DNA of 64,000 nt from Syntrophales bacterium. Lineage in GTDB: Bacteria; Desulfobacterota; Syntrophia; Syntrophales; UBA4778. The stretch spans positions 32,884-96,883 of the forward strand of contig JBHGBI010000001.1 of assembly GCA_041946925.1 (NCBI GenBank), in the 5' to 3' direction. The position numbers and the translations under genes are program-made. Under the pieces are notes generated by a model. It ran no database searches, was not told the origin of the DNA, and saw nothing but the letters and a program-made list of their open reading frames with translations. Below, piece by piece: positions 22,081 through 53,958 of this stretch; the first letter of the stretch is position 1, and every line of letters begins with the position of its first letter.

Positions 22081-22096
22081 TGGCATGATCATTGCT
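22081..22096 (+). promoter_or_regulatory. sigma-54 (-24/-12) promoter
   Basis: TGGCATGATCATTGCT versus consensus TGGCAC-N5-TTGCW. GG and GC are at the correct spacing with one mismatch. It lies ~115 nt upstream of the ATG at 22212. Confidence 0.5.
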
Positions 22097-22211: not shown

Positions 22212-22664
22212 ATGAACATCATTTTTTATTCAAAATGCATGCATGGAACGGGAGAGCGGTTGTATAACATGATCGAATCCCTGTTTTTGAAAAAAAAGAT
22301 GGACGTATGCCGTACCCCGGCAGAACTGTCGTTGAGGCTTTGCCAGCCTCTGGACAATTCTCTTGTCGTGATTCTGGTGATTGCGGATCGTGAAGACCTT
22401 TCCAATATACTATCCATGCGTATTCTGCTGCAGGATACCCGAACGGTCCTGGTCCTACCCGACAGGCAGAGCGAGGCACTCGCCGGGAATCTGAACCCGA
22501 GACACCTGGCCTTCGCGGACAGCGAGTATCTGATAGTAGAGATCGCCTCCGTGCTGAAAGCCATGCTGGAAATCATTTATCTCTACAAAAAGGAAGTCGT
22601 CATATCCGGATGGCATAACCGTATCAGACGCTGGATGGCCGACAAGAAGATACAGTTGCATTGA
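22212..22664 (+). CDS. hypothetical protein (possible flavodoxin/receiver-like alpha-beta fold, no phosphoacceptor signature)
   Basis: 150-aa ORF with SD AAAGGAG 5 nt upstream. It shows an alternating hydrophobic-strand/helix pattern (IIFYS, VVILVIAD, TVLVLPD, HLAFAD) and I recognise no family. It is visibly AT-richer than its neighbours. Confidence 0.4.
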   Translation: MNIIFYSKCMHGTGERLYNMIESLFLKKKMDVCRTPAELSLRLCQPLDNSLVVILVIADREDLSNILSMRILLQDTRTVLVLPDRQSEALAGNLNPRHLAFADSEYLIVEIASVLKAMLEIIYLYKKEVVISGWHNRIRRWMADKKIQLH

Positions 22665-26301: not shown

Positions 26302-26353
26302 GTCAAATCACCTCCCGAAAAATTACGAAAACCAATATCTGGCGGATATACAG

Positions 26354-26369
26354 AGCAATCTCGGTGCCG
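26354..26369 (-). promoter_or_regulatory. sigma-54 (-24/-12) promoter of amtB-glnK
   Basis: The minus strand reads CGGCACCGAGATTGCT (GGCAC-N5-TTGCT), ~50 nt upstream of the amtB ATG. Confidence 0.55.
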
Positions 26370-26712
26370 TGGGAGTAATTCGTTATAAGCCGTTGTTTTT
26401 AAAGGAATTATGAGAAAAGAAGGCGAGATGAAAAAATAACATAAATGTAGATTGAATATTTATAAATACATAAATGTGATTATTTTATTCTTGATCTGTG
26501 CTGGTATTCTTTTAGATGGAAAGAAGTCCTGATATTGAATATATTTCAACATGTTGGGTGCAAAAGTAGGGTTCTATCTCTCCTGATGGGGAATTTCTCC
26601 CATTGTATTCATTGCCGCTTTCGGTTAAAAAAGACGTATCCAGGGTAAAGGGAAAAAGGCGCTTGTGGCAAATCCCGCGGGAACGCCACGAAAACATGCG
26701 AAGGAGGCATAT

Positions 26713-27735
26713 ATGAAAGCAGCCATAATGGGCGCCGGCTCGCTCGGGACGATCGCCGGGGCTCTGATCACGAAAAACGGCGGGGATGTCGTTTTAATCG
26801 ACGCCAACAAGGAGCATGTGGAGGCGTTGAATAAGAACGGCGCGACAGTAACGGGCAAAATGCAGTTGAACGTGCCTGTACGGGCCATAACACCTGACCG
26901 TATGGAAGGCACTTACGACATTGTCCTCTATATGGTGAAGCAGACCCATAATGAGCAGGCACTGAGATCGCTGCTCCCTCATCTGCATGACCGCAGTGTC
27001 GTATGTGTCATGCAGAACGGAGTTCCTGAAGAGGCCGTTGCGGCATGTGTCGGTAAAGAAAGGGTTGTCGGCTGCGCGGTCGGCTGGGGAGCCACCTGGT
27101 TGAAGCCGGGTGTTTCCGAACTTACTTCCGAGGTGGCCAAGATGACCCTGGATGTGGGGGAATTGGAGGGTCACTCGAGCTGGCGCGTGCAGATGGCGGC
27201 CGATATCCTGAGAAAGATCTGTCCTACGGAAATTACGGAGAACCTCCAGGGTATCCGCTGGTCAAAGCTGTTGATTAATGCTACATTTAGTGGGATGTCT
27301 GCGGTCCTCGGCTGTACTTACGGGGACATACTCGAAAATGAAAAAGCGCTTACCTGCGCGGCTGTTATCGCCAATGAAATCATAGCTGTGGCGAGAGGTC
27401 TCGGCGTAATCCTGGAGCCGATCCAGGGAGTCGATCTGCAGATCCTTGCCTTCAGGAACAAGACGGAAATGATGGGGAAGTTTCCCATTTACCAGGCTGT
27501 CTTCGGTCCTCATCGCCTTCTTAAGGCCAGCATGCTTCAGGACCTTGAGAAAGGGCTGAAGACGGAAATCGGGGCGATCAACGGGGTAGTATGCGAAAAG
27601 GGCAGGAAGGTTGCAGTGGCGACCCCGGTGAATGATACGGTTGTGGAAATTGTCACGGGAATCGAGGCGGGTAAGTACAGACCGGTCTTCAGAAATATCG
27701 ATTTATTCAAACTTCCGCAGATACCGGAAAAATGA
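26713..27735 (+). CDS. ketopantoate reductase (PanE/ApbA) family NAD(P)-dependent oxidoreductase
   Basis: Start at the ATG after GAAGGAGG. MKAAIMGAGSLGTIAGALITKNGGDVVLID is a Rossmann N-terminus, and the ApbA_C-like second half is present. Confidence 0.75.
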   Translation: MKAAIMGAGSLGTIAGALITKNGGDVVLIDANKEHVEALNKNGATVTGKMQLNVPVRAITPDRMEGTYDIVLYMVKQTHNEQALRSLLPHLHDRSVVCVMQNGVPEEAVAACVGKERVVGCAVGWGATWLKPGVSELTSEVAKMTLDVGELEGHSSWRVQMAADILRKICPTEITENLQGIRWSKLLINATFSGMSAVLGCTYGDILENEKALTCAAVIANEIIAVARGLGVILEPIQGVDLQILAFRNKTEMMGKFPIYQAVFGPHRLLKASMLQDLEKGLKTEIGAINGVVCEKGRKVAVATPVNDTVVEIVTGIEAGKYRPVFRNIDLFKLPQIPEK

Positions 27736-27763
27736 AACAGGAAGGAAAACAGGAGGTTGTAAA

Positions 27764-28687
27764 ATGAAAGAGAAAGCAGTTGTTACGGCGGCAATTACGG
27801 GAAGCATCCATACGCCGACAATGTCGGAGTATCTGCCCATCACGCCGAAGCAGATCGCGGACGAGGCCGTTCGGGCCCGCGAGGCGGGTGCGGCGGTCTG
27901 CCACATCCACGCGCGCAACCCTGAGACGGGGATGCCAGTGCCCGACGTAAACCTCATGAAGGAGATCGTCTCAGATATCAAGAGACGTTGCGATATCGTG
28001 GTATGCATCACTACTGGAGGCGGCCTGGGTATGACCGTCGAGCAGCGCGTCGCTCCGGTTACACTCTATAAACCGGAGCTTGCCTCTTTCAATGCGGGCT
28101 CGATCAATTTCGCGCTCTTTCCGGTGATCCCCCGCTTCAAGGAATTCAAGCATCCCTGGGAGAAGCAGTACCTGGCGATGAGCGAAGATTTCATCTTCCC
28201 CAACACCTTTAAATCGATGCGGGAGTACTGTGTTATCTTCAATGAGAACGGGACGAAGCCGGAATTCGAGATCTACGATTCGGGGATGGTGAACAATGTC
28301 GCCTTCATGATCGAGGCGGGGTACGTGAAGAAGCCCGTTTACATCCAGTTCGTCATGGGGGTCCTGGGCGGGATCACCCCGAGTTCGGAAAACCTTCTTT
28401 TCATGGTGGACTACGCGAAGAAGCTGATCGGCGATTTTGAGTTTTCGGTCTGCGTGGCGGGCCGGGCGCAGTTTCCGATCTGCACGCAGTCGCTCCTTAT
28501 AGGCGGCAATGTCCGGGTGGGTCTCGAGGACAATCTCTACCTGGAGAAGGGGCAGATGGCGAAGAGCAATGCCGAGCAGGTGGCGAAAATCGTGCGTATC
28601 GCCCGCGAACTCGGGATCGAGCCGGCCACCCCGGATGAGGCCAGGAAGATTCTCGGCTTGAAGGGTATGGACAAAGTGAATTTCTGA
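27764..28687 (+). CDS. beta-keto acid cleavage enzyme (BKACE / 3-keto-5-aminohexanoate cleavage enzyme family, DUF849)
   Basis: Start after AGGAGG. The sequence VVTAAITGSIHTPTMSEYLPITPKQIADEAVRAREAGAAVCHIHARNPETG is the typical BKACE N-terminus. ~307 aa TIM barrel. Confidence 0.8.
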   Translation: MKEKAVVTAAITGSIHTPTMSEYLPITPKQIADEAVRAREAGAAVCHIHARNPETGMPVPDVNLMKEIVSDIKRRCDIVVCITTGGGLGMTVEQRVAPVTLYKPELASFNAGSINFALFPVIPRFKEFKHPWEKQYLAMSEDFIFPNTFKSMREYCVIFNENGTKPEFEIYDSGMVNNVAFMIEAGYVKKPVYIQFVMGVLGGITPSSENLLFMVDYAKKLIGDFEFSVCVAGRAQFPICTQSLLIGGNVRVGLEDNLYLEKGQMAKSNAEQVAKIVRIARELGIEPATPDEARKILGLKGMDKVNF

Positions 28688-28857
28688 CGAATACGTCCAA
28701 AAGCCTGGCCGGATCTTCTTGACAAGAATGCCGAGTTGAAGGAAAGTAGCGGCATGCGTTCTTTGGTAAGTAAAACATACTTACAAATTTAGGGTATCGC
28801 TGCTGAACGAGGCTGAGGCTCAACGAAATAATTTTTTTCTCACAAAGGAGTCGTGTC

Positions 28858-30303
28858 ATGATCGGAATAACATCTTACGGAGCGTACATACCCCGCTACA
28901 GGCTGAATCGCAAAGTGATTTTTGAGATGATGGGCTGGTTTAACCCGGCGACAGCCGCCGTGGCCAGAGGGGAGAAGGCCGTGGCGAATTGTGACGAGGA
29001 CAGCATCACCATGGCCGTCTCTGCGGCCATAGACTGTATGAACGGCGGGAAAAGAGAAAGCGTGGACGGCGTTTACCTGGCCTCCACATCACTGCCTTTC
29101 GCGCAAAGGCAGAATGCGGTCATAGTTTCAGAGGCGCTTGATTTCAAGGCGGGCATACGCAGCGCAGACGTGGCGGGCTCGCTTAAGGCAGGTACGACGG
29201 CGCTTCTTGCCGCTCTGGATGCGGCTGGCAGCGGCCAGGCCCGGCAGTTCCTCGTCGCGGCCAGCGAAGCGAGAGTCGGAAAGCCGGGAAGCAATCAGGA
29301 GCACACATTCGGAGATGGCGCCGCAGCCCTCTTGGTGGGCCGTGAAGGAGTGATAGCCGAATACAAGGGTTCGTATTCCGTCTCTCACGACTTCATTGAT
29401 TACAGGCGCTTGAATGTGGAGAAGTTCGAACACGGTTGGGAAGAGCGGTGGATACGGGAAGAAGGCTACGGGAAGATCATACCCGAAGCGGCGGCGGGAC
29501 TTGCGAAAAAGTATAATCTGAAAGTCGCCGACTTCGCGAAAATCGTTGTCGGCTGTCCAGTGGCGGCGCTTGTCGCAAGCCTTGGGAAGGCCATGGGAGC
29601 GAAACCGGAGCAGATGGAGGACAACATGGCGTCGACAGTCGGGGATACCGGCGCCGCACTGCCGCTGATGATGTTCACGGCGGCGCTGGAGAAGTCCAAG
29701 CCTGGCGACCGGATTCTTGTCCTGAGCTATGGGAGCGGGGCCGATGCCCTCTGGTTTGAAGTCACACCGGAAATAGAGAAAGCGCGCGACAGGAAAGGAA
29801 TAGGCGGACATCTTTCATTGAAGAGAGAGCTTGCGAACTACGGAAAATACCTCGTTTTCCGCGATTTGATACCCCTGGAAGTGGGTATCCGTGGCGAGGA
29901 GATAGCGCCGATGGCGATGTCGGTTCTGTACAGGGAGGGAAAGACTATTTCCGCCCTGGTCGGTTCGAAATGCCGCGCCTGTGGGACGCCTCAGTATCCG
30001 CCGCAGAAGATCTGCGTGAATCCGCAGTGCGGCGCCGTGGGGGATATGGAACCTTATCGTTTTTCCGATAAAGTCGGAACTCTTGCATCCTATACGGGAG
30101 ACAATCTGGCGTTCAGTCTGGATCCGCCGGCGATATACGGGCTTGTGGATTTTAAAGAAGGGGGGAGGCTTTTTCTGGACCTGACGGACTGCTCATTGAA
30201 GGACCTGTGGGTAGGGATGCCGGTTGTCATGACCTTCCGGAGAAAATACGCGGACGTCAGGCGTGCGATATTTGGCTATTACTGGAAAGCTATTCCGGTA
30301 TAG
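28858..30303 (+). CDS. HMG-CoA synthase-like (thiolase-fold) protein lacking the nucleophilic Cys, fused to a C-terminal DUF35 Zn-ribbon/OB-fold domain
   Basis: The N-terminus MIGITSYGAYIPRYRL and its general colinearity resemble archaeal-type HMGCS. The archaeal GSESHPY and FACKAGT positions read ASTSLPF and GSLKAGT here. The C-terminus has CRACG-x10-C-x4-C followed by an OB-fold-like segment (DUF35). Confidence 0.7.
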   Translation: MIGITSYGAYIPRYRLNRKVIFEMMGWFNPATAAVARGEKAVANCDEDSITMAVSAAIDCMNGGKRESVDGVYLASTSLPFAQRQNAVIVSEALDFKAGIRSADVAGSLKAGTTALLAALDAAGSGQARQFLVAASEARVGKPGSNQEHTFGDGAAALLVGREGVIAEYKGSYSVSHDFIDYRRLNVEKFEHGWEERWIREEGYGKIIPEAAAGLAKKYNLKVADFAKIVVGCPVAALVASLGKAMGAKPEQMEDNMASTVGDTGAALPLMMFTAALEKSKPGDRILVLSYGSGADALWFEVTPEIEKARDRKGIGGHLSLKRELANYGKYLVFRDLIPLEVGIRGEEIAPMAMSVLYREGKTISALVGSKCRACGTPQYPPQKICVNPQCGAVGDMEPYRFSDKVGTLASYTGDNLAFSLDPPAIYGLVDFKEGGRLFLDLTDCSLKDLWVGMPVVMTFRRKYADVRRAIFGYYWKAIPV

Positions 30304-30446
30304 TATTGTGGGACTGGCGTCCCAAAAGCGGGCGGCCGGGAAAACGCCGCTTGCGAGGAAAAATATGAACGGCCGGGGGCGGATCGAAAGCGGGAGTAAA
30401 AACCGCGGGCCGATGAGCCCGGCGCCAATGAACTGGAGGATATAAA

Positions 30447-31649
30447 ATGGCTGCAGGAATCAAGAACGAAGTAGCTATCATCGGTATGGGTTGTACAAAG
30501 TTCGGGGAGCTTTGGGACAAGAGCGGGACGGATCTCATTGTGGAGGCGTTCCAGGAGGCTATCGAGGACGCGGGTATTGAGAAGAAGGATATCGGGGCTG
30601 TCTGGTTTACCAACTGTTTCGAGGAGATCAATTTCGGGAAGAGCGCCATTCCCCTGCCGAAGACGTTGAAACTTCCGTTTGTCCCGGTGACAAGGGTCGA
30701 AAACTTCTGCGCGAGCGGCTCCGACGGGTTCCGCAATGCCTGCTATGCCGTGGCGTCAGGGGCATGCGACATCGCCATGGCACTCGGCGCCGAAAAGCTG
30801 AAGGACACGGGCTACGGCGGGCTGCCCGATTTCGGGACTGTTATGGGAACGGAAAACAGGATGCTCTTCCCTAATGTTACCGCGCCGGGCGGATTCGCCA
30901 TGACCGCGACCGCTTATTTTTCGAAATACGGACTCTCGGCGCAAGAGGGCAAGAGGGCGCTTGCCCACATCTCCGTCAAGAGCCATCACAACGGCGCGCT
31001 GAACCCGAAAGCCCACCTCCGGCGGGAGGTTACAATAGAGCAGGTCATGCAGGCTCCCATTGTGGCGTGGCCGCTCGGCCTCTTCGACTGCTGCGGCGTG
31101 AGTGATGGGGCGGCATGCGCCATCATCTGCCGGGCCGATAAGGCCAGGCAGTTCAGAAAAGATCCCGTTTACGTGAAAGCCCTCCAGATCGCGGCCACAT
31201 CGGGAGAAGAGCTCGCTTACCGGGATTGGGACATCGCCCACATCGAGACGACTTACAGGGCGGGAATACAGGCCTACAAGGAAGCAGGGATCACCAAGCC
31301 GAGAGAGGAAATAAGCATGATGGAGGTCCATGACTGCTTTTCGATCACCGAGTTCGTTACTTACGAAGACCTGCAGATATCGCCCCGCGGGAAGGCAAGG
31401 GATGATGTGGAATCCGGATTTTACGACCTGGACGGGAAAATACCCTGCCAGCCGGACGGCGGTCTCAAGTGCTTCGGTCACCCCATCGGGGCCTCGGGGC
31501 TGAGGATGATCTATGAGATGTATAAACAGCTCCAGGGAAAGGCGGACAAAAGGCAAATCAAAAATCCCCGTATCGGTCTCACCCACAACCTGGGCGGGTT
31601 TCCCTCGATGAGTGTTGTGAGCGTGGTCATTGTGGGGAATGAGCTTTAA
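30447..31649 (+). CDS. thiolase (SCP-x / DUF35-partner type acetyl-CoA C-acyltransferase)
   Basis: 400 aa with catalytic Cys in VENFCASGS and a C-terminal GGLKCFGHPIGASG motif. Confidence 0.85.
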   Translation: MAAGIKNEVAIIGMGCTKFGELWDKSGTDLIVEAFQEAIEDAGIEKKDIGAVWFTNCFEEINFGKSAIPLPKTLKLPFVPVTRVENFCASGSDGFRNACYAVASGACDIAMALGAEKLKDTGYGGLPDFGTVMGTENRMLFPNVTAPGGFAMTATAYFSKYGLSAQEGKRALAHISVKSHHNGALNPKAHLRREVTIEQVMQAPIVAWPLGLFDCCGVSDGAACAIICRADKARQFRKDPVYVKALQIAATSGEELAYRDWDIAHIETTYRAGIQAYKEAGITKPREEISMMEVHDCFSITEFVTYEDLQISPRGKARDDVESGFYDLDGKIPCQPDGGLKCFGHPIGASGLRMIYEMYKQLQGKADKRQIKNPRIGLTHNLGGFPSMSVVSVVIVGNEL

Positions 31650-31667
31650 AATGGGACATGGAGTTTT

Positions 31668-32756
31668 ATGGGGAAGGTCAGTATCGTCCGCACGGCCGGG
31701 GAAGTCGGGGAGGCGCTGATCCGCGCTCTCGACCTGATTGGCGGTCCTGAACAATTCATGGACCATAATGACGTGATCATGCTGAAGCCGAATCTGAACG
31801 GGACGGAAGGGTTCACGGACATCCGCCTTGCGGAATCGATGATCCGCCTGATTCTCGATTTCCGGGTGAAGAGATTGCTCATTGCGGAATCCTGCTTCGG
31901 AAATCCCGGCATGACGGACATGTTTTTCAACAAGACCGGATACTCCGGCCTCGCGAAAAGATACGGGATTGATCTGATAAATCTGAATAAGTCGGAAGCG
32001 GTGGAAACCAGGGTGAAAAAGCCTTTGATCCTTGACAGGCTGAAGATAGCCCGCGAGGTCTTTGAGGTGGACCGGATCATCAACATGCCGGTCATGAAAG
32101 TCCACTACGCAACCGGCGTTACGCTGTCCTTGAAGAATCTGAAAGGGCTGCTGGTGGGGGATGAGAAAAGGCGCTTTCATGAGGTCGGTCTCGATAGGGC
32201 CATCGTCGACTTGAACAACACTATAAAACCCGACCTGAACATCATCGATTGCATATCCTGCATGGAGAGAATGGGTCCGAGAGGGGGCGATGTGGTAAAC
32301 TTGAACCTGCTTATCGCCGGAAGAGACTGCGCCGAGGTCGATTACGTCGGAATGGAGATCATGGGTTACCGCCCGGATGAGGTCAGGCATTTTCTTTATT
32401 ATATAAACGAAAACAACGTGGACGTGAACGGCATTGAGGTGGCCGGAGAGAAAATCAGCGATGTGAAATACAAATTCAAGAAGGCGAAGCTGGAGAATAT
32501 CCTGCCCGGATCGTTCAGGATCAGGAACAGGAATGCTTGTAGTTCGTGCATGAATGCACTGCTCCTGTCCTGTCAGATTCTCGAAAAACCCGCCTCTCGC
32601 GATGTCCTTTTTTACCTGGGTTCGGACCTCGATGAAGAAAAAGCCGATGCAATTACCATTGCGTTCGGAAATTGCTGTACAACGAGGGCGGACCGCAGGA
32701 TCAGGGGATGCCCCCCGTATCCTTTCGAATTGAAGAGGATCCTGGAGGGAAGTTAG
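31668..32756 (+). CDS. DUF362 domain-containing protein
   Basis: The N-terminal KVSIVRT...DVIMLKPNLNG pattern is typical of DUF362. The C-terminal part is Cys-rich (CSSCMNALLLSC; GNCC; GCPPYP). Confidence 0.6.
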   Translation: MGKVSIVRTAGEVGEALIRALDLIGGPEQFMDHNDVIMLKPNLNGTEGFTDIRLAESMIRLILDFRVKRLLIAESCFGNPGMTDMFFNKTGYSGLAKRYGIDLINLNKSEAVETRVKKPLILDRLKIAREVFEVDRIINMPVMKVHYATGVTLSLKNLKGLLVGDEKRRFHEVGLDRAIVDLNNTIKPDLNIIDCISCMERMGPRGGDVVNLNLLIAGRDCAEVDYVGMEIMGYRPDEVRHFLYYINENNVDVNGIEVAGEKISDVKYKFKKAKLENILPGSFRIRNRNACSSCMNALLLSCQILEKPASRDVLFYLGSDLDEEKADAITIAFGNCCTTRADRRIRGCPPYPFELKRILEGS

Positions 32757-45685: not shown

Positions 45686-47362
45686 ATGGAACTTTTTTTC
45701 ACTCTTATAAAGGCAATGGCCGTTTTCCTGGTCATCGCTTATCTTTTTTCCAAAACACCGTGGTTCAAGCCCCTGACTACGGAAAGCCTGCGGTTTCGCG
45801 ATAAGCTATATATATACTTCTTCTTTTCCACCATCTCCATTCTGGGAACGTACCTGGGATTTCCCATCCATGACGCCATTGCGAACACCAGGGCCATCGG
45901 CCCCGTTCTGGCCGGCCTTGTTTTCGGCCCTGTGCTGGGTACGGCGACCGGTTTAACAGGGGGGCTGCATCGGTACTTTCTGGGAGGGTTCACGGCCTTC
46001 TCCTGCGGATTATCGACGACGGTCGAGGGGACCATCGGCGGCCTCGTTCATGTCTATTTGGTCAGGAAAAACAAGTCCCGGATGATCTTCGATCCCAAGG
46101 TAGCCTTTGTCACAACATTCTTCGCGGAAATCGTCCAGATGATAATAATCCTTCTTGCGTCGCGGCCTTTAACGGATGCAGTTGCCCTTGTGAAAGTCAT
46201 CGCCATCCCTATGATTCTGACGAGCGCAACAGGTGCCGCCCTCTTCCTGAGCATTATCCGCGACCAGAAGAATATCTATGACCGGGTGGCCGCCGTTTCA
46301 TCCGCCCGGGCGTTCAAGATCGCGGAGCGGACGCTGAACATTCTCAGCCGTGGCATCAGCCGGGAAACAGCCGGAGACCTGGCGAAGATCATCCGCGAGG
46401 AAACCGGCGTGGGTGCGGTGGCCATTACGGACAAGGAAAACGTCCTCGCTTTCGAAGGCGAAGGTTCGGATCACCATATACCCGGCGACCCCATCGCTTC
46501 GCCGTTGACGAAAGAGGCGATCAGTGAAAACAAGGTCATTTTTGTAGACGGCGTGCAGGATCCTTATGAATGCCCCATTTCCGACCGATGTCCCTTGAAT
46601 TCTGTGCTCGTGGTGCCTCTGCAGATAGATCAGGATGTAATCGGCACGATCAAACTTTATGAACCGAAGAACAGGTTTTTCCTCAACATTAACAAGAGCC
46701 TCGGAGAGGGGATCGCCAATCTGCTATCGAATCAGCTACTGCTGGCGCGCTACGAGGACCAGAAAAATCTTCTGATGACGGCTGAATTGAAGCTCATCCA
46801 GGCTCAGGTCAATCCCCACTTCCTTTTCAATTCCCTGAACACGATCATTTCGGTCATCCGGAGCGATTCGGCCAAGGCCCGGGATCTGCTGGTCAACCTC
46901 GCCAATTTTTTCCGGAAAAACCTCAAGAGAGGTGGGGAGCTTACGACACTTGAAGATGAGCTCGATCACGTCAACTCATACCTGACAATAGAAAAGGCGC
47001 GTTTCGACGACCGGCTTACGGTGGAAATGGACATCGACCCCTCACTGCTGAAACTGCAAATCCCGACTTTCACTCTGCAGCCCCTGATCGAAAATGCCAT
47101 CAAGCATGGTATTTCGAACATGCTGGGGCCAGGGAAAGCCAAAATAAGCGCCTACCGGAAAGGCGATTCAGCCGTCATCGAAGTCGAGGACAACGCAGGG
47201 ACCTATTCCCAGAAGAAGACCGCCGACGGGCTGGGGATTAATATCGTCGACAAGCGGATCAAAAACATTTTCGGCCGTCGCTACGGCACGGCGGTATCCT
47301 GCATTCCAAACGAAGTAACCCGCGTCACGGTGGAAGTGCCTGCAGGAGGTTCAGGGACATGA
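45686..47362 (+). CDS. LytS/BtsS-type sensor histidine kinase (5TMR-LYT, GAF, His_kinase, HATPase_c)
   Basis: 558 aa. N-terminal 5TM LytS receptor region, a central GAF-like region, the LIQAQVNPHFLFNSLNTI H-box of the LytS/YehU family, and a C-terminal ATPase domain. Confidence 0.85.
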   Translation: MELFFTLIKAMAVFLVIAYLFSKTPWFKPLTTESLRFRDKLYIYFFFSTISILGTYLGFPIHDAIANTRAIGPVLAGLVFGPVLGTATGLTGGLHRYFLGGFTAFSCGLSTTVEGTIGGLVHVYLVRKNKSRMIFDPKVAFVTTFFAEIVQMIIILLASRPLTDAVALVKVIAIPMILTSATGAALFLSIIRDQKNIYDRVAAVSSARAFKIAERTLNILSRGISRETAGDLAKIIREETGVGAVAITDKENVLAFEGEGSDHHIPGDPIASPLTKEAISENKVIFVDGVQDPYECPISDRCPLNSVLVVPLQIDQDVIGTIKLYEPKNRFFLNINKSLGEGIANLLSNQLLLARYEDQKNLLMTAELKLIQAQVNPHFLFNSLNTIISVIRSDSAKARDLLVNLANFFRKNLKRGGELTTLEDELDHVNSYLTIEKARFDDRLTVEMDIDPSLLKLQIPTFTLQPLIENAIKHGISNMLGPGKAKISAYRKGDSAVIEVEDNAGTYSQKKTADGLGINIVDKRIKNIFGRRYGTAVSCIPNEVTRVTVEVPAGGSGT

Positions 47363-48069
47363 TTCGTGCTCTTGTCGTTGATGATGAAATCCATGCCCGT
47401 GAAGAGCTGAATGCTTTGCTGGCCGAAACAGGGGAGTTCGCGGTTATCGGCACATGCGCCAATGCCGTCGAAGCAATCCAGGCCATCAACCGGGAAAAAC
47501 CGGATGTCGTTTTCCTCGATATCCAGATGCCGGTGATTAACGGTTTCGAGCTTCTGAGCATGATAGATGAAAAAATCATGCCGCTCATCGTATTCGTTAC
47601 AGCTTACGATGAGTATGCCTTGAAGGCCTTCGATGAAAATGCCCTCGATTACCTTCTCAAGCCGGTGGATAAGGAAAGGATCGTCAAAACCGTCCGGAAA
47701 CTCAAGACGATGTTGAATGAGGGGGGAAGGCCCGTATATGCCGGGCCGGATATCAGAAAAATTCCCTGCATCACTACAGCTGGAATCAAGTTGATCAACG
47801 TATCCGACGTGGAGTATGTCAGGTCGAACGAGGCGGGTGTTTACATTGTTTGCGCCAAGGGAGAATACTTCACCGATCTGACGCTCAAGGTGCTCGAAAA
47901 CCGGGCGAATCTGATCCGGTCCCATAAACAGTTTCTCGTCAACATCGACCGGGTGGACGAGATACTTTTCCACGACCACATGGCGGCGGACATAAAAATG
48001 AAATCGGGCAAGACCGTGCCGGTGAGCCGTCGGTATCTCAAGCTTCTCAGGGAAAAGCTGAATTTCTGA
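47359..48069 (+). CDS. LytTR/LytR-AlgR family response regulator (BtsR/LytT-like)
   Basis: Receiver domain (VVDDE...DVVFLDIQMP) plus a C-terminal LytTR DNA-binding domain. The start overlaps the kinase stop (ATGA). Confidence 0.85.
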   Translation: MIRALVVDDEIHAREELNALLAETGEFAVIGTCANAVEAIQAINREKPDVVFLDIQMPVINGFELLSMIDEKIMPLIVFVTAYDEYALKAFDENALDYLLKPVDKERIVKTVRKLKTMLNEGGRPVYAGPDIRKIPCITTAGIKLINVSDVEYVRSNEAGVYIVCAKGEYFTDLTLKVLENRANLIRSHKQFLVNIDRVDEILFHDHMAADIKMKSGKTVPVSRRYLKLLREKLNF

Positions 48070-48235
48070 TCCCGCCCTCCGGACGATCCCTCACCCATTC
48101 GCCCATTTCACATGTCAGAAGAAAGATAAAAAAATCCCCATCCTTACAAGCCTTCAAAAACGCCGGGGTACCAGGCGCAATCAAGCCGTAAGATGGTGAA
48201 GAGTGAGAAGCGAGGTTTGGATTCTTCACATCCAT

Positions 48236-48284
48236 GCCGCTTAATCTCCGATAATAACCGCTTACAAAATAATCCGACCGCCTG
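48236..48284 (+). promoter_or_regulatory. three direct repeats resembling the BtsR/YehT (LytTR) box upstream of cstA
   Basis: GCCGCTTA (48236-48243), 13 nt, ACCGCTTA (48257-48264), 12 nt, ACCGCCTG (48277-48284). The motif reported for E. coli YehT is ACC[G/A]CT[C/T]A repeated after a 13-bp spacer. Confidence 0.5.
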
Positions 48285-48419
48285 TCGGGCTTCCTGTTGC
48301 GGAACCGTCCTGCCTTTGCGTTAATGTTATCGTTAATGTTGTACAGGTGATTCTCATTCAGAACAGACGAAAAGGTTGTCCGCCGGATCAATAGGTGGAT
48401 ACAGCAAAAGGAGGCTTAT

Positions 48420-50309
48420 ATGAATGCACTCGTTGGTTTGAATGCGGTGACGCTGGTCTTCGTATCCCTGTGCATCTTCGCCATCGGATACAGACTCTAC
48501 GGTCTGTTCATCGCCAACAAGGTCCTTCAAGTGAGGCAGGACAGACCAGTGCCGGCCGTACTGCAGGCGGACGGCCATGACTATGTCAAGACAAACAAGT
48601 ACGTCCTTTTCGGACACCATTTTGCCGCTATCGCTGCGGCAGGCCCTCTCCTGGGGCCTGTTCTGGCGGCGCAGTTCGGGTATCTGCCGGGCGCCATCTG
48701 GATCATCGTCGGAGCGGTCCTGGCGGGAGCCGTACACGACATGGTGGTCCTTTTCGCTTCGGTAAGGCACAAGGCGCAGAGCCTGGCGAAAATCGCTGAG
48801 AGCGAGGTGGGAAAGACGGCCGGTCTTGTGGCTTCTTTCGCCTACATATTCATTCTCGTTCTGACGCTGGCGGGGTTGTCGATCGCCGTCGTGAACGCCC
48901 TGTTCGACAGCGTCTGGGGGACATTTGTCGTAGCTTCGACGATCCCCATAGCCATCTTCATGGGGTTGTGGATGCAGAAGATCCGCCCTAACGACGTGCC
49001 GGGCGCCAGCATCATCGGTGTTGTCCTTCTCGTAGCGGCCATTGTGGCCGGGCCTTATGTTGCGGCCAATCCGACTCTGGCGGCCCTCCTGACATTGAGC
49101 AAGAAACAACTGGCCGTCGCGATCCCGATTTACGCTCTGGCGGCTTCTGTCCTTCCCGTATGGCTGCTGCTTGCGCCCAGGGACTACCTCTCCACCTACC
49201 TCAAGATCGCCACGATCGTCATGCTGGCCGCGGGGATTTTGATAGTTCAGCCCAAGATGCTTATGCCTCCCCTAACCCGGTTCGCCGGCGGCGGAGGCCC
49301 GGTCATTCCCGGCAATGTGTTCCCCTTTGTATTCATCACGATTGCCTGCGGGGCCATTTCCGGGTTCCACGCGATCATCGCCTCGGGGACGACCCCGAAG
49401 ATGATCGGCAGCGAACGGGACATTCCCTTCGTGGGCTACGGAGCCATGCTGGTCGAAGGCTTCGTCGCCGTCATGGCGCTCATTGCCGCTTCCGTGCTGG
49501 TTCCGGCTGACTACTTCGCGATCAACAGCGCCCCGGCGGCCTTTGCGAAGCTGGGTATCGACCCCGTGAACCTCCCCTGGCTCGCTCAGGAAGTGGGCGA
49601 GAAGATTCAGGGCCGGCCTGGCGGAGCCGTATCGCTTGCCGTTGGAATGGCTTATGTATTTTCCTCCATCCCATTCCTGGAACACCTGATGGCCTACTGG
49701 TATCACTTCGCCATTATGTTTGAGGCGGTGTTTATATTGACGGCGGTCGATGCCGGCACGCGGGTGGGACGATTCCTGCTGCAAGAACTCTTCGGGAAGG
49801 TGATCCCCAGGTTCGCCGAGACCCACTGGATACCCGGCCTGCTCCTCACCGGCACGCTCTTTACCTTCATGTGGGGGTATCTGGTCTACACCGGCGACAT
49901 CGCCTCGATCTGGCCGCTCTTCGGAATGAGCAACCAGCTCTTGGCGGCAAGCGGCCTCATCATCGTCACGACGATGCTTATCCGGCTGGGCAGGGCGAAG
50001 TACATGTGGGTGACCGCGGTGCCTGGAATTTTCATGGCCTTCGTCACCGTGTACGCGGGATACCTGAACATCACGGTGAACTATCTGCCGAAGGGAGACT
50101 ACTTGCTGGCCGTGCTCTCCGTCATGGTCATTATCCTCATGGTGATCGTCTTCGTGGCGACTTTCAGGAGGTGGTACGAGCTCCTTCAGATCAAGGAGAG
50201 GGTTACAGACATATGGGGAGAGAAGGTGCTCGCGCTGGTCAAGGATGAAAATGTGCCTGTGGCGGAGGAGGTCAAGCAGGGTAATGTAGGCTTCAGAGCC
50301 ATAAAATAA
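48420..50309 (+). CDS. cstA: carbon starvation protein A family transporter (CstA/BtsT-like pyruvate/peptide transporter)
   Basis: 629-aa polytopic protein with the CstA N-terminal pattern (YRLYGLFIANKVL...GHHFAAIAAAGPLLGPVLAAQFGYLPG). Confidence 0.9.
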   Translation: MNALVGLNAVTLVFVSLCIFAIGYRLYGLFIANKVLQVRQDRPVPAVLQADGHDYVKTNKYVLFGHHFAAIAAAGPLLGPVLAAQFGYLPGAIWIIVGAVLAGAVHDMVVLFASVRHKAQSLAKIAESEVGKTAGLVASFAYIFILVLTLAGLSIAVVNALFDSVWGTFVVASTIPIAIFMGLWMQKIRPNDVPGASIIGVVLLVAAIVAGPYVAANPTLAALLTLSKKQLAVAIPIYALAASVLPVWLLLAPRDYLSTYLKIATIVMLAAGILIVQPKMLMPPLTRFAGGGGPVIPGNVFPFVFITIACGAISGFHAIIASGTTPKMIGSERDIPFVGYGAMLVEGFVAVMALIAASVLVPADYFAINSAPAAFAKLGIDPVNLPWLAQEVGEKIQGRPGGAVSLAVGMAYVFSSIPFLEHLMAYWYHFAIMFEAVFILTAVDAGTRVGRFLLQELFGKVIPRFAETHWIPGLLLTGTLFTFMWGYLVYTGDIASIWPLFGMSNQLLAASGLIIVTTMLIRLGRAKYMWVTAVPGIFMAFVTVYAGYLNITVNYLPKGDYLLAVLSVMVIILMVIVFVATFRRWYELLQIKERVTDIWGEKVLALVKDENVPVAEEVKQGNVGFRAIK

Positions 50310-51341: not shown

Positions 51342-52016
51342 CTATTTCAATACTACAAGCGCGTCCACCGCGACCGGGACTCCGGCGGAAATGACGAACG
51401 GGTTTATATCGATTTCCTTGATATCCGGATAGTCTGCTGCGATATTCCCCACGCTGACAAGTATATCCGCGAGGAGTCCCGTATCCAAGGCTCCCATTCC
51501 CCGAATGTCATCTAGTATCTTCCTGGCGTTTATCTGCCCGATCATGTCGAAGGCCTCCCGCCTGTCGAACGGCGCGAGCCTGAATGCTACATTGGACAGG
51601 ACTTCCGTGAAAGCGCCGCCCAGCCCGAACATGACGGTGGGGCCGAACTGGGCGTCTCGCGTGAGGCCGACAATCAGTTCACGGCTTCCTTTTATCATCT
51701 CCTGAATGAGGACGACCGGCTTCCCGCCGGGCATTTTCGCCGCGATCTTCTCAAAAGCTTCTTCCGCTTCGCGTTTGTTCCTGATATCCAGCAGAACAAG
51801 ACCCAGCTCGGTTTTGTGAGAAATACCCGGCGCGCATCCTTTCATTACCACGGGAAAGCCGATCTCGACGGCGGCGGCGCGACAGGCGCGCTTGCTGCCG
51901 GCCAGCCGCTCCTTCACTACGGGTATCCCGCGGCTCCCCAGTATCAGCTTGGCTTCGTACTCGGTCAGTATTTTCCGCCCCTCTTTGTGGGCCTGCTTAA
52001 TCACGTCCATCGGCAC
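51342..52016 (-). CDS. acetate--CoA ligase (ADP-forming) beta-type subunit (ATP-grasp domain)
   Basis: 224 aa. LTEYEAKLILGSRGIPVV...GFPVVMK is the typical ATP-grasp_5 domain of ADP-forming acyl-CoA synthetases. It overlaps the upstream subunit by 20 nt. Confidence 0.75.
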   Translation of the reverse strand: MPMDVIKQAHKEGRKILTEYEAKLILGSRGIPVVKERLAGSKRACRAAAVEIGFPVVMKGCAPGISHKTELGLVLLDIRNKREAEEAFEKIAAKMPGGKPVVLIQEMIKGSRELIVGLTRDAQFGPTVMFGLGGAFTEVLSNVAFRLAPFDRREAFDMIGQINARKILDDIRGMGALDTGLLADILVSVGNIAADYPDIKEIDINPFVISAGVPVAVDALVVLK

Positions 52017-53409
52017 CTCCCATGTACCTGCAGTATTTCGCCAGATAGCTCGCGGCTAATGCCGCATCTTCGGGCGCCTGATATACGGGAATACCCGCCT
52101 CCTGCATGATTCTCACGTCGTCGACGATCTCCTCGCGGGAGGCCACGATCGATACGATGATCGGCTTCGATGTTCTCTGTCTCAGTTCCGCCAGGGCCTT
52201 TGCTGGCGTTTCGAAATTCCGGTGAATGGCGTAGACAGAGATCAGCATGTCTACACCATCGTCCTCGAGTATGGCCTCCGCGCATTTCGAATAATACTCA
52301 GCGAAAAAACCGGAGCCGGTTACATCTATCGGGTTGGAGGCGAGCACAACAGGCACATGTTCGCCTATTATCTTCCTGATCTTTCTTCGCGTCTCTTCCG
52401 AGGTCCCGGCGAGGGGGCATCCGTTTTCAATAAGGGTATCGAGCGCCAGTATGCTCGGTCCCGCGGTGTGCGTCAGGACGGCGACCCGTTCCCCGTCAGG
52501 GCGGGGCGCCAGGGCGAGCGCTTTGCAAACCACGGACAGTTCCATTGAATTCCGCACCTCGAGTATCCTGAATTGCCGGCACGCGTCATGGAATATCTTG
52601 TATGTCCCTCCCATGGTTCCTGTATGGCTCGCAGCTACTGCACCCATTGATTCGGATCTCGCACCTTTCAGGAGTACAAGGGGCTTCTTCCGCGCGAGTT
52701 TTCCAGCCGCCTCTATGAAGGCGCGGCCGTCCTCCACGCCCTCGACAAAGGCGGCGATGACACGCGTGTCATCATCGGCGGCGAGGTAGTGGAACATGTC
52801 GCTGAACTCGAGATTGGTGCGGTTTCCCAGGCAGACCCACTTGTTCACGCCTATGTTTCTGTCTATCATATCATTCAGCATAGTGCATGCCACGCCTCCG
52901 CTCTGGCTTACGATCGAGACGGCCCCTTTCGGGTTTCCTTTTTTGAAGGACCAGAACGTGGCATACAGGCGATGGTCGTTATTGATGACTCCGAGTATAT
53001 TAGGCCCGAAGATGATTATTTTGTTCGCGTCGGCCTTCTCCCGCAGTATCTTTTCATATCGCGCGCCTTCCTCGCCGACTTCTTTGAACCCCCCCGCGAG
53101 GCAGACAATTCCCTTGACGCCGATCCGCGCGCAGCTCTCGATTACCGGCCCTGCAGTCAGCTTCGCGTTCAAGCCGCAGATGACGAGGTCTACAGGCTGC
53201 CCGATCTCCTCGATACTGGCATAGACCTTAAGGCCGAGCAGTTCTTTAAGGCGGGGATGGACGGGGTAGATTGGACCGGGGAATCCCTCGAGCTTGAGGA
53301 CATCGACGACCTGAGTGCCTAAGTTGTTGGCGGCGTCTGATACGCCGAGGACGGCGACACTGCGGGGATAAAGAGCCTCGCGGATTCTCTTCAGTTTCCA
53401 TTCTTCCAT
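51997..53409 (-). CDS. acetate--CoA ligase (ADP-forming) alpha-type subunit (CoA-binding plus succinyl-CoA-synthetase-like flavodoxin domains)
   Basis: Start chosen at MEEWKLKRIREALYPRSVAVLGVSD (CoA_binding_2 N-terminus). It includes GPNILGV and the phosphohistidine-loop region SHTGTMGG. Confidence 0.75.
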   Translation of the reverse strand: MEEWKLKRIREALYPRSVAVLGVSDAANNLGTQVVDVLKLEGFPGPIYPVHPRLKELLGLKVYASIEEIGQPVDLVICGLNAKLTAGPVIESCARIGVKGIVCLAGGFKEVGEEGARYEKILREKADANKIIIFGPNILGVINNDHRLYATFWSFKKGNPKGAVSIVSQSGGVACTMLNDMIDRNIGVNKWVCLGNRTNLEFSDMFHYLAADDDTRVIAAFVEGVEDGRAFIEAAGKLARKKPLVLLKGARSESMGAVAASHTGTMGGTYKIFHDACRQFRILEVRNSMELSVVCKALALAPRPDGERVAVLTHTAGPSILALDTLIENGCPLAGTSEETRRKIRKIIGEHVPVVLASNPIDVTGSGFFAEYYSKCAEAILEDDGVDMLISVYAIHRNFETPAKALAELRQRTSKPIIVSIVASREEIVDDVRIMQEAGIPVYQAPEDAALAASYLAKYCRYMGGADGRD

Positions 53410-53958
53410 GATGACGTTGCTCCTTTGTGAGTGCGATCTCTTTATCGCTTTTGAGGAGAAAAGTAAATGTTTAAAACAGGCATCAGCAGACTGTTGAAAA
53501 ACAATCATTTGCGCAGCTGCAATGCTACGGGCGAAGGATCAAGGACTGAAGGCGACAGGGGGGATGAATTGGTGAGTCTTTTAATTACCGAAGGCTTTAT
53601 CCTGCTCCGAAAACCCGCGAATGTCCGCCTTACCCTTCACTTTTGAGGCAAATGGTATGCATGTCCTCTGCAAAAATCAAGTAACTACGGATACTGACAA
53701 CACCCTGTCTCCCTGGTATGTATATTGCTTTCCTCAGTCTGATTTGCGCGATTGACTTTTAAAATAAAAGTTGTATCCTTGTGCTTGTTTGAAGCAGGTG
53801 ATGAGCAGTATTCTCGATTCACCTTCTCTTTGTCTTCGTTCTTATCTTCCGCAGGAACCGCTTCTCACAGATCACCTTGGATAACGGGCACGGCTAAGGC
53901 GGAAATTCGCCTGAACGTGAATCAGTTCACGATACCGTTGATAAAAGGAGTTCTTCAG

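Follow-up and report, generated by a model that had tools for sequence, protein, structure and literature searches.

The five co-directional genes g1 to g5, which lie in a 64,000-nt stretch of a Syntrophales genome (the window), are ordinary members of known families in an arrangement that is not conserved. The string is probably a juxtaposition specific to this lineage, in which three separately inherited units have come together, namely a KPR-family dehydrogenase with a BKACE (unit A, g1 and g2), an HMGS-like::DUF35 fusion with a thiolase (unit B, g3 and g4), and a DUF362 protein (unit C, g5). What was observed directly is the identity of the genes, the state of their motifs, and the patterns of conservation.

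The gene string and its surroundings

The original prediction had described five co-oriented genes, each with its own Shine-Dalgarno sequence, and all five open reading frames (5/5) were found with the expected strand and coordinates (Table 1). A GGAG-type Shine-Dalgarno motif precedes every start, and the start sites are consistent with the lengths of homologues. The family identities also hold, based on Pfam/NCBIfam-type model matches. The intergenic gaps are, in order, 28, 170, 143, and 18 nt, and no terminator-like site was predicted on the plus strand within the string. Because the genes are co-directional and no terminator is predicted, units A, B, and C are probably co-transcribed. All five genes have GC and GC3 values inside the host range, and the surrounding genes have housekeeping functions (dcw cluster, ftsA/ftsZ, amtB-glnK, an AsmA-like gene, and mnmA). 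The gap between amtB and g1 comprises 410 nt and is AT-rich. It contains a single weak putative sigma-70-like match (26517-26545, plus strand), two exact copies of ACATAAATGT that are 29 nt apart, and a putative sigma-54-like element on the minus strand (26355-26369), which faces amtB.

Table 1. Coordinates of the genes, domains, and intergenic region in the window.
Feature	Position	Strand	Description
Divergent intergenic region amtB (-) / g1	26302..26712	.	presumed promoter/regulatory region of the string
g1	26713-27735	+	KPR-family NAD(P)-dependent dehydrogenase, 340 aa
g2	27764-28687	+	BKACE, 307 aa, long type
g3	28858-30303	+	HMGS-like::DUF35 fusion
g3 N-terminal domain	28858..29871	+	catalytically dead HMGS-like (PhlA-like) thiolase-fold, aa 1-338
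g3 C-terminal domain	29938..30303	+	DUF35 (zinc ribbon + OB fold), aa 361-481
g4	30447-31649	+	SCP2/archaeal-ACAT-type thiolase, 400 aa
g5	31668-32756	+	DUF362 protein, 362 aa

Conservation of the arrangement and the outer genes

Gene neighborhoods were compared for the best 80 of 136 g3 loci, using species representatives only; the flanks were at least 2.2 kb long upstream at 60 of these loci and at least 2.6 kb downstream at 58. No KPR or DUF362 homolog was found in the flanks of any of the best 80 of 136 loci, and a BKACE gene occurred at only one of them (L015), unlinked, 5 kb away and on the other strand. The original prediction had named missing co-conservation in related genomes as grounds for its refutation, and the five genes do not form a conserved pathway unit. 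The five-gene combination is undescribed because it does not recur. From the earlier interpretation the gene identities, the pairing of a dehydrogenase with a BKACE, and the scaffolded thiolase are supported, while the five-gene pathway and the role assigned to the KPR-like enzyme are not.

The g1 protein matches the Pfam families ApbA and ApbA_C (1e-28 each) and the generic apbA_panE subfamily model TIGR00745 (186.7 bits, cut-off 141), and stays below the cut-off of every PanE equivalog model. Alignment with solved KPRs revealed the Lys of the WxKLxxN motif (K185) and the Glu of the (S/T)EI motif (E285), as well as an insertion of about 20 aa in g1. The g2 protein matches the BKACE family PF05853 over its full length (350 bits, 1e-104), has 3LOT as its top PDB match (1e-108), and keeps the HxH (H47, H49) and LED (E255) motifs.

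Apart from g3 and g4, KPR and BKACE form the sole pair of string members that recurs. The two genes also adjoin each other in the close lineage L088/L089, where the identities are 73% and 77%, and, at 33% and 46% identity, in L097/L102/L105, a distant soil lineage, which agrees with the predicted pairing. A 3HCDH-type enzyme is present in each of these cases, and in relatives such an enzyme lies beside the BKACE gene with or without a KPR-like enzyme. Therefore, the KPR-like enzyme is not necessarily the producer of the beta-keto acid, which is the role that had been proposed for it. The recurring pairs are accompanied by a GntP-like permease in addition to the 3HCDH enzyme, whereas both are absent from the present locus. 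BKACE relatives with 87-92% identity to g2 are found in different gene contexts. The commonest Syntrophales context of this clade has a non-orthologous DUF35 gene and two thiolase-fold genes 4-7 kb away, and some recurrent link between BKACE and DUF35 is therefore possible at the superfamily level.

An NAD(P) dehydrogenase gene adjoining the gene for a Zn-dependent BKACE is known from TfD-TAL in the phloroglucinol pathway of Clostridium scatologenes, the Kce step, and carnitine dehydrogenase with the dehydrocarnitine cleavage enzyme, and g1-g2 share this organization. In the Kce step, which belongs to lysine fermentation, the partner is the 3,5-diaminohexanoate dehydrogenase Kdd. The dehydrogenases known as partners belong to the 3HCDH or other types, in contrast to the KPR family of g1. 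The BKACEs of these three modules use acetyl-CoA and release acetoacetate and an acyl-CoA. Unit A may likewise work on a free hydroxy- or keto-acid, and g2 would convert acetyl-CoA and a beta-keto acid to acetoacetate and an acyl-CoA two carbons shorter.

The last gene has no conserved link to g1-g4, and its orthologs (59-74% identity) have unrelated neighborhoods. The g5 protein matches DUF362 (PF04015, 148 bits, 6e-43) and was correctly described as Cys-rich. It contains 10 Cys, of which C291, C294, C336, C337, and C348 in a C-terminal cluster are invariant in 16 homologs (55-74% identity). A sequence-level PDB search gave no match, LarA included. However, the AlphaFold model (pLDDT 88) resembles only LarA-type racemases, and the top 18 Foldseek matches in the PDB are all of the lactate/malate racemase type (E 3e-6 to 6e-4). 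Unit C, a DUF362 protein, thus models with a LarA-like fold, and DUF362 and the N-terminal domain of LarA (DUF2088) share the Pfam clan CL0471. Unlike LarA, g5 has the additional invariant Cys cluster, and no larB, larC, or larE gene was found in the 64-kb window.

The thiolase and its HMGS-like::DUF35 partner

The N-terminal part of g3 is FabH/HMGS-like, and the C-terminal part matches the Pfam families zf-ChsH2 and OB_ChsH2_C (DUF35). The top PDB matches of the N-terminal domain are PhlA (9skh_A, 5e-40) and archaeal HMGS (6esq_I, 2e-35), and the domain is as close to PhlA (140.9 bits) as to true HMGS (125.9 bits for the archaeal enzyme). The label "pseudo-HMGCS" was well chosen: the E-C-H-N tetrad of HMGS is replaced by T77, L109, G232, and D263, none of 74 family members keeps E, C, or H, and a single one keeps N. 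Because all four catalytic residues are replaced, g3 is unable to make HMG-CoA. The zinc-ribbon residues C372, C375, C386, and C391 are invariant in the alignment (A1). Natural fusions in the g3 family extend to HMGS-like::DUF35::SDR::SCP2 (P0363), ::SDR (P0377), and ::SCP2 (P0362).

The g4 protein matches Thiolase_N/Thiolase_C_1 and PRK06157 (643 bits, cut-off 403). Its catalytic Cys (C88 in CAS), HDxF (H295-D-C297-F), and GHx (G-H345) motifs are present in 68 of 68 relatives, and it is an intact thiolase, as predicted. In the best 80 of 136 loci, the fusion gene is followed directly by the thiolase gene in 75 genomes at the species level, and the median distance between the two is 46 nt; of the remaining five, three are at a contig edge, one has the thiolase gene 1.6 kb away, and one lacks it. 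Frequent neighbors at these best 80 of 136 loci encode acyl-CoA dehydrogenase and SDR (38 loci each), AMP-forming ligase (34), two hot-dog hydratases of the MaoC type (26 and 21), and crotonase (12). The next gene after the pair in Syntrophales encodes a 3-hydroxyacyl-CoA dehydrogenase (L002, L003, L012, L040) or a thioesterase (L001). The pair usually resides in beta-oxidation-type operons of anaerobes.

Judged by architecture and motifs, g3 and g4 are a member of the class represented by PfACAT/HMGS-DUF35 of Pseudomonas fluorescens (Nat Commun 2026), to which they are likened by its published description: an HMGS-like domain without E-C-H-N is fused to DUF35, the thiolase keeps catalytic Cys, HDxF, and GHx, and PKS or NRPS neighbors are absent. 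The Pseudomonas complex of a dead HMGS::DUF35 and an intact ACAT cleaves acetoacetyl-CoA thiolytically and makes neither HMG-CoA nor acetoacetyl-CoA, and the H294Y exchange in the HDxF motif abolishes activity (PMC12960953). These results support the predicted "scaffolded thiolase." Secondary-metabolism neighbors are missing at 1,001 of 1,030 bacterial loci, and the authors of that study see in the class an "evolutionary intermediate" that has no pathway (PMC12960953), in contrast to the usual location of the g3-g4 family in beta-oxidation-type operons. By extrapolation from the Pseudomonas homolog, unit B would form an ACAT/HMGS-DUF35 thiolase complex with a comparable substrate range. The g4 protein would perform the chemistry, presumably in the direction of thiolysis, with acetoacetyl-CoA or a different 3-oxoacyl-CoA as the substrate, while the dead HMGS-like domain and DUF35 of g3 may serve as a scaffold and as part of the CoA-binding chamber.

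The archaeal thiolase/HMGS/DUF35 complex (6esq) has the same three building blocks and the same thiolase motifs, and its chains 6esq_A (2.5e-61) and 6esq_E (6e-12) are the nearest relatives with a solved structure for g4 and for the DUF35 part of g3, respectively. However, the archaeal DUF35 forms a chain of its own, and the HMGS of the complex is catalytically active and draws condensation towards HMG-CoA, in contrast to g3 with its replaced catalytic residues. The benzoylsuccinyl-CoA thiolase BbsAB (PDB 7PXP), which acts in anaerobic beta-oxidation-like degradation, also combines an SCP2-type thiolase with HDxF and a DUF35 Zn-finger subunit, but it lacks an HMGS-like subunit, and g4 reaches only 160 bits with the BbsB model (cut-off 750).

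Alternative readings of the string

The genes might be accidental neighbors without any metabolic coupling, with g1 as a PanE-type KPR for CoA biosynthesis, g2 as an orphan BKACE, g3-g4 as a housekeeping short-chain thiolase, and g5 unrelated. This is unlikely, although the match of g1 to the generic apbA_panE model, its KPR Lys and Glu motifs, the housekeeping surroundings, the lacking co-conservation, and the 170- and 143-nt gaps, which are roomy enough for internal promoters, all agree with it. The adjacency of KPR-like and BKACE genes in two further, mutually distant lineages argues that g1 works with g2 and not in pantothenate synthesis, and the failure of g1 at every PanE equivalog cut-off, its insertion, and the lack of a predicted terminator between the genes also speak against an accident. 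A biosynthetic role of the PhlACB (Pseudomonas protegens) or MucABC (Streptococcus) kind is disfavored and appears highly improbable. In this case g3-g4 would be a Friedel-Crafts or Claisen C-acyltransferase, and g1-g2 would supply a polyketide-like acceptor in reverse. These C-acetyltransferases are also composed of a dead HMGS-like protein (PhlA/MucA), a thiolase-fold protein, and DUF35; PhlA is a slightly better match for the N-terminal domain of g3 than archaeal HMGS is, and PhlA and g3 share the E-to-T and N-to-D replacements. However, HDxF has been lost from PhlC and MucB, neither of which cleaves acetoacetyl-CoA, whereas g4 keeps HDCF and scores far higher with archaeal ACAT (211 bits) than with PhlC (90-99 bits). 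Type III PKS or NRPS-PKS genes are absent nearby, the family neighbors are beta-oxidation genes, and the P. fluorescens homolog gave no condensation product (PMC12960953).

A dedicated triacetate/3-hydroxy-5-oxohexanoate catabolic operon, the lower half of the anaerobic phloroglucinol pathway, would assign g1 as a non-orthologous substitute for 3-hydroxy-5-oxohexanoate dehydrogenase, g2 as triacetate acetoacetate-lyase, g3-g4 as the enzyme that splits the acetoacetyl-CoA product and recycles acetyl-CoA, and g5 as an accessory. The g2 protein scores 432.4 with the triacetate lyase equivalog of this pathway (NCBIfam NF053538, cut-off 430), a 90% identical relative carries the same name in JGI, and the characterized C. 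scatologenes cluster pairs a dehydrogenase with a BKACE and contains a thiolase, which is induced along with the BKACE. In addition, an mBio supplement lists a dihydrophloroglucinol-cyclohydrolase homolog from a Syntrophus sp. MAG. Nevertheless, we consider this quite doubtful. The margin is 2.4 bits, relatives with 89-90% identity fall below the cut-off (425.9 and 426.5), and the g2 clade lies on both sides of it (425.9-433.2). CsTAL apparently belongs to the short BKACEs, with about 281 aa (847-nt genes, 100% coverage, cblaster table), in contrast to the 307 aa of g2, and its Trp16 (Glu14 in Kce) corresponds to Ile15 in g2, as placed by motif register. The 64 kb contain no SDR-type phloroglucinol reductase, cyclase-family cyclohydrolase, 3HCDH, or transporter gene, and here, too, the five genes lack co-conservation.

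For the favored juxtaposition of three separately inherited units, a coupling of A and B is conceivable, in that unit B could regenerate the acetyl-CoA used by unit A. The adjacency on one strand and the compatible chemistry could, against the juxtaposition view, also mean a real local pathway.

Five co-oriented genes and their surroundings

The five genes g1 to g5 are not a conserved pathway, and every component belongs to known families. [quoted passage not shown] This description was confirmed: five forward-strand open reading frames are present, a GGAG-type ribosome-binding site precedes the start of each, and the family assignments agree with Pfam and NCBIfam. The intergenic distances from g1 to g5 are 28, 170, 143, and 18 nt.

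Features of the g1 to g5 string and further features of the window
Feature	Position	Strand	Description
g1	26713-27735	+	KPR-family dehydrogenase (Pfam, NCBIfam)
g2	27764-28687	+	BKACE over the full length (Pfam, NCBIfam)
g3	28858-30303	+	HMGS/FabH-like domain, then DUF35 zinc ribbon and OB fold
g4	30447-31649	+	SCP2/archaeal-type thiolase
g5	31668-32756	+	DUF362 protein
Antisense ORF	30756-32390	-	544 aa, antisense to g4 and g5
Repeat pair	26439-26448 and 26468-26477		ACATAAATGT, amtB/g1 intergenic region
Sigma-54-like element	26355-26369	-	CGGCACCGAGATTGC, one mismatch, 5' of amtB-glnK
Sigma-54-like element	22081-22095	+	TGGCATGATCATTGC, one mismatch, 5' of ORF 22212-22664
Two adjoining genes	51342-53508	-	CoA_binding_2 and Succ_CoA_lig, and ATP-grasp_5 domains
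Three-gene unit	45686-50309		LytS-type histidine kinase, LytTR response regulator, CstA transporter
selB	1093-3006	-	SelB selenocysteine elongation factor

Housekeeping genes flank the string. On its 5' side these are the dcw cluster, ftsA/ftsZ, and amtB-glnK, the latter pair in divergent orientation; on its 3' side they are doxX, which is convergent, an AsmA/YhdP-like gene, and eamA. No terminator-like site was found on the forward strand inside the string, and promoter-like matches within it occur at chance level (5 versus 4.3 expected). The sole good intergenic match to a sigma-54 promoter 5' of g1 points towards amtB. Two sigma-54-like elements are included in the table, and across the window the frequency of such matches is not above chance. 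The region between amtB and g1 also contains two exact copies of ACATAAATGT, 29 nt apart, which may represent an operator. GC content and GC3 of all five genes lie within the host range, and the annotated neighbors include neither an integrase nor a tRNA flank, so that the readings as a mobile island or as recently transferred DNA of foreign origin were rejected. The long antisense ORF is most likely spurious, given that strong homologs exist for both of the genes that it overlaps on the other strand.

The HMGS-like fusion protein and its thiolase

The g3 gene is a single ORF of 481 codons, with the HMGS-like part at residues 1-338 and the DUF35 part, a zinc ribbon followed by an OB fold, at residues 361-481. 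In an alignment with 6esq_I, from the archaeal thiolase/HMGS/DUF35 complex, and with PhlA, from the Friedel-Crafts C-acetyltransferase PhlACB, the positions of the HMGS tetrad Glu-Cys-His-Asn are occupied by T77, L109, G232, and D263. None of 74 g3 relatives from other genomes retains the Glu, Cys or His, and one of the 74 retains the Asn, while the four zinc-ribbon cysteines of the DUF35 part are invariant. The NCBIfam HMGS equivalogs stayed under their cut-offs (222 versus 244 and 169 versus 353). A true HMG-CoA synthase or a mevalonate pathway was ruled out, because all four catalytic residues are replaced. The thiolase g4 contains the motifs C88-A-S (CxS), H295-D-C297-F (HDxF), and G-H345-P (GHx), each of which is retained in 68 of 68 relatives. 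Its closest solved structure is 6esq_A, the thiolase of the archaeal complex (2.5e-61), and PhlC reached merely 90-99 bits. Thus, the predictions of a pseudo-HMGS fused to DUF35 and of an intact thiolase were both right, since the tetrad has been lost in g3, which encodes the fusion in one ORF, and the three motifs are all present in g4.

Proteins of this kind have been described in a survey of 1,030 bacterial loci with co-localized genes for HMGS, acetoacetyl-CoA thiolase (ACAT), and DUF35 (PMC12960953, 2026). In the PfACAT/HMGS-DUF35 complex of Pseudomonas fluorescens the HMGS and DUF35 parts are fused, the Glu-Cys-His-Asn tetrad is absent, and the thiolase keeps Cys, HDxF and GHx. [quoted passage not shown] All sequence features of this class are found in g3-g4, although the physical complex and the thiolysis of acetoacetyl-CoA without condensation are known for the P. 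fluorescens representative only. In contrast, HDxF is absent from PhlC and MucB, subunits of Friedel-Crafts acylases (PMC12960953). A PhlACB-type acylase was therefore ruled out for g3-g4, because g4 contains HDCF and no polyketide synthase is encoded nearby; neither type III PKS nor NRPS-PKS genes were found in the window or among the frequent neighbors of the family. The class has been called an "evolutionary intermediate" without a pathway (PMC12960953). Apart from that study, no published account was found of the five-gene combination, or of the pair in either Syntrophus or Dehalococcoidia.

Species-representative genomes were searched with a profile built from g3 relatives, and the best 80 of 136 loci were inspected. 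They belong to Syntrophales, Desulfobacterales, many Dehalococcoidia/Chloroflexota, Nitrospirota, and Bacillota, and the isolate Dethiosulfatibacter aminovorans is among the hosts. The thiolase gene lies directly 3' of the fusion gene in 75 of these best 80 loci (median gap, 46 nt); of the other five, three are cut off by a contig edge, one has the thiolase gene 1.6 kb away, and in one it is missing. The flanks reached at least 2.2 kb upstream in 60 of the 80 loci and at least 2.6 kb downstream in 58, and no homolog of g1 or g5 was found in any of them, so that the expected co-conservation of the five genes fails. A BKACE near a g3 homolog was present in a single one of the best 80 loci (L015). 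It is 65% identical to g2 and is encoded on the opposite strand, 5 kb away; between it and the pair lie two genes for acyl-CoA dehydrogenases, a short ORF with no annotation, and a fragment of an ABC-ATPase. In the nearest relative (L001; 82% identity for g3, 88% for g4) the pair has a PRAI-like gene on one side and a thioesterase gene on the other.

The frequent neighbors of the pair in the best 80 of the 136 loci are acyl-CoA dehydrogenases (38 loci), SDR proteins (38), AMP-forming ligases (34), two small MaoC hydratases (26 and 21), and crotonases (12), and in Syntrophales a 3-hydroxyacyl-CoA dehydrogenase gene often comes after the pair. An exhaustive g3 search yielded 613 clusters at E <=1e-30 (50%-identity representatives), and most of the best 150 of these 613 are full-length fusions. 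In the homologous proteins P0363 (911 aa), P0377 (800 aa), and P0362 (722 aa) the dead HMGS::DUF35 is fused further to SDR and/or SCP2 domains, a layout that resembles peroxisomal multifunctional beta-oxidation enzymes. The pair is widespread in Dehalococcoidia, Syntrophales, and Desulfobacterales within beta-oxidation-type operons, and this location, together with the fusions to SDR/SCP2, points to a working degradative thiolase. From gene context we conclude that g3-g4 would act as the thiolase step of beta-oxidation-type pathways, which goes further than the reading as an intermediate in evolution.

One contig binned as Marinilabiliaceae (Bacteroidota; locus L006, JAOZOF010000093.1) carries a 69%-identical fusion and thiolase pair with acyl-CoA dehydrogenase and ligase neighbors, which is due either to horizontal transfer or to a binning error.

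The KPR-BKACE pair and the DUF362 gene

The dehydrogenase g1 contains the domains PF02558 (100 bits) and PF08546 (101 bits) and scores 186.7 on the subfamily model TIGR00745 (cut-off 141.35). All PanE equivalog models, which would indicate a true 2-dehydropantoate 2-reductase, remained far under their cut-offs (126.6 versus 252; 125.9 versus 500). The BKACE g2 matches PF05853 (DUF849) over the complete profile (1-274/274) with 349.8 bits versus a gathering score of 24.8. Its motifs CH47IH49AR and VGLE255D align with their counterparts in the structures 3LOT, 3E02, and 3E49 in a motif-level comparison. The HxH and Glu motifs of BKACEs, as known from Kce, an enzyme of lysine fermentation, are the zinc ligands. 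BKACEs are promiscuous, and their grouping, G1-G7 in the scheme of Bastard et al., follows the charge and polarity of the substrate; a related BKACE of the long type cleaves malonate semialdehyde.

A metagenome search with g1 revealed that KPR+BKACE recurs at two loci (L088 and L089; 73% identity for the KPR and 77% for the BKACE), where the genes 5' of the pair encode a 3HCDH-type dehydrogenase and a permease, the latter orthologous between the loci, and also in a distant soil lineage (33% and 46% identity, respectively), with an adjoining 3HCDH gene. Therefore, g1-g2 is a recurrent pair. It appears to belong to modules of transporter, dehydrogenase(s), and BKACE for free hydroxy acids, judged from its relatives; a GntP-like permease and a 3HCDH gene are absent from the window.

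Hundreds of g2 relatives with 87-92% identity exist in Syntrophales MAGs, in contexts unlike that of g2. The commonest one in this clade (L081, L084-L087, and L110-L112) is an operon for an acyl-CoA dehydrogenase, a protein of the HpaB/4-hydroxybutyryl-CoA dehydratase family, and the BKACE, followed, where the loci are long enough, by an OYE-type FMN/FAD reductase and a class V aminotransferase; L084-L086 include a sigma-54 activator. A divergent gene set beside this operon encodes an acyl-CoA dehydrogenase, MaoC, two thiolase-fold proteins, and DUF35. The thiolase-fold proteins of L081 and L110-L112 are 28-32% identical to g4, and the His residues of HDxF and GHx are replaced, a trait of Ltp2-type aldolases. 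For these reasons they and the accompanying DUF35 were ruled out as orthologs of g3-g4. In a second context of g2 relatives, the BKACE gene stands together with genes for a sigma-54 activator, a GntP-like permease, and a dehydrogenase of the 3HCDH type.

A structural model of g5 (pLDDT 88) had LarA-type lactate/malate racemases as its best 18 Foldseek matches (E 2.7e-6 to 5.8e-4, TM 0.37-0.49), and no LarA was matched by sequence, even in a profile search with E up to 10. The protein thus models as a LarA-like two-domain fold, in agreement with the common Pfam clan of DUF362 and DUF2088. Five C-terminal cysteines are invariant, as are H146, K156, and H171, which are spaced by 10 and 15 residues. 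The spacing is similar to that of the catalytic His174, the cofactor-tethering Lys184, and the nickel-binding His200 of LarA, and the three residues are no more than candidates for binding of a nickel pincer or for catalysis. The genes larB, larC, and larE were not found among the scanned genes of the window. Orthologs of g5 with 55-74% identity are spread over many phyla, and the neighborhoods of three that were inspected (59-74% identity) are unrelated. Nothing but the 18-nt gap connects g5 with the other four genes.

Triacetate and the reading of the whole string

The score of g2 on NF053538, the NCBIfam equivalog for triacetate acetoacetate-lyase, is 432.4 and exceeds the cut-off of 430, so that g2 could be named triacetate lyase (3,5-dioxohexanoate:acetyl-CoA acetone transferase) of the phloroglucinol pathway. 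In addition, a homolog of the dihydrophloroglucinol cyclohydrolase from a Syntrophus sp. MAG (A0A351ZBY1, 264 aa) is found in supplement file 4 of PMC10470551 (mBio 2023), and therefore some Syntrophales may carry parts of this pathway. However, the clade of g2 straddles the cut-off: relatives with 89-92% identity reach 425.9, 426.5, and 432.5, and the L088 homolog (77%) reaches 433.2; the Archaeoglobus structure 3LOT scores 448.3. The characterized enzyme of Clostridium scatologenes, CsTAL, has been described as close to Kce, with Trp16 replacing Glu14 (PMC10470551), whereas g2 has Ile15 at the position of Trp16, as placed by the register of the TxAxTG motif only. The cblaster table implies about 281 residues for CsTAL (PMC10470551), compared to 307 for g2, and phloroglucinol reductase, dihydrophloroglucinol cyclohydrolase, and the 3HCDH-type dehydrogenase are all absent from the 64-kb window. 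Taken together, it is unlikely that g2 is a triacetate lyase. Because this highly conserved Syntrophales clade lies around the cut-off (425.9-433.2 for g2 and the homologous proteins P0002, P0026, and P0094), automatic names will clash, and near-identical proteins will be annotated as either "triacetate lyase" or "3-keto-5-aminohexanoate cleavage protein".

Of the original interpretation as a pathway, the gene identities, the dead HMGS, and the intact thiolase have stood, but the conserved five-gene pathway has not. We regard it as probable that the string is a lineage-specific row of independent units, namely the KPR+BKACE pair, which would cleave a hydroxy/keto acid, a thiolase complex of the known ACAT/HMGS-DUF35 class, and a DUF362 gene with no relation to them. 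In the Syntrophales genome the units are possibly co-transcribed, and the first two are chemically compatible, because the thiolase can return acetyl-CoA. A functional operon fusion in this lineage, in which the BKACE module is wired to the thiolase in an ATP-free loop that recycles acetyl-CoA, seems rather improbable. In such a loop a free beta-hydroxy or beta-keto acid would be converted to acetoacetate and an acyl-CoA, the scaffolded thiolase would give acetyl-CoA back, and the LarA-fold DUF362 protein would provide the correct stereoisomer for the KPR-type dehydrogenase. The substrate might be triacetate from a phloroglucinol-type ring cleavage or a 5-hydroxy analog of the lysine fermentation substrate. 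If true, this would give a syntroph that lives under energy limitation a new route for the activation of free acids. The reading as a row of independent units stops a plausible "new five-gene pathway" from spreading, since this gene order is confined to a single lineage.

Three further observations concern other parts of the window. The two adjoining genes with CoA-binding and ATP-grasp domains look like an ADP-forming acyl/acetyl-CoA synthetase, which bears on ATP gain from acetyl-CoA in syntrophs. The genes for the LytS-type kinase, the LytTR regulator, and CstA form a typical three-gene unit. The presence of SelB indicates that the organism probably makes selenoproteins.
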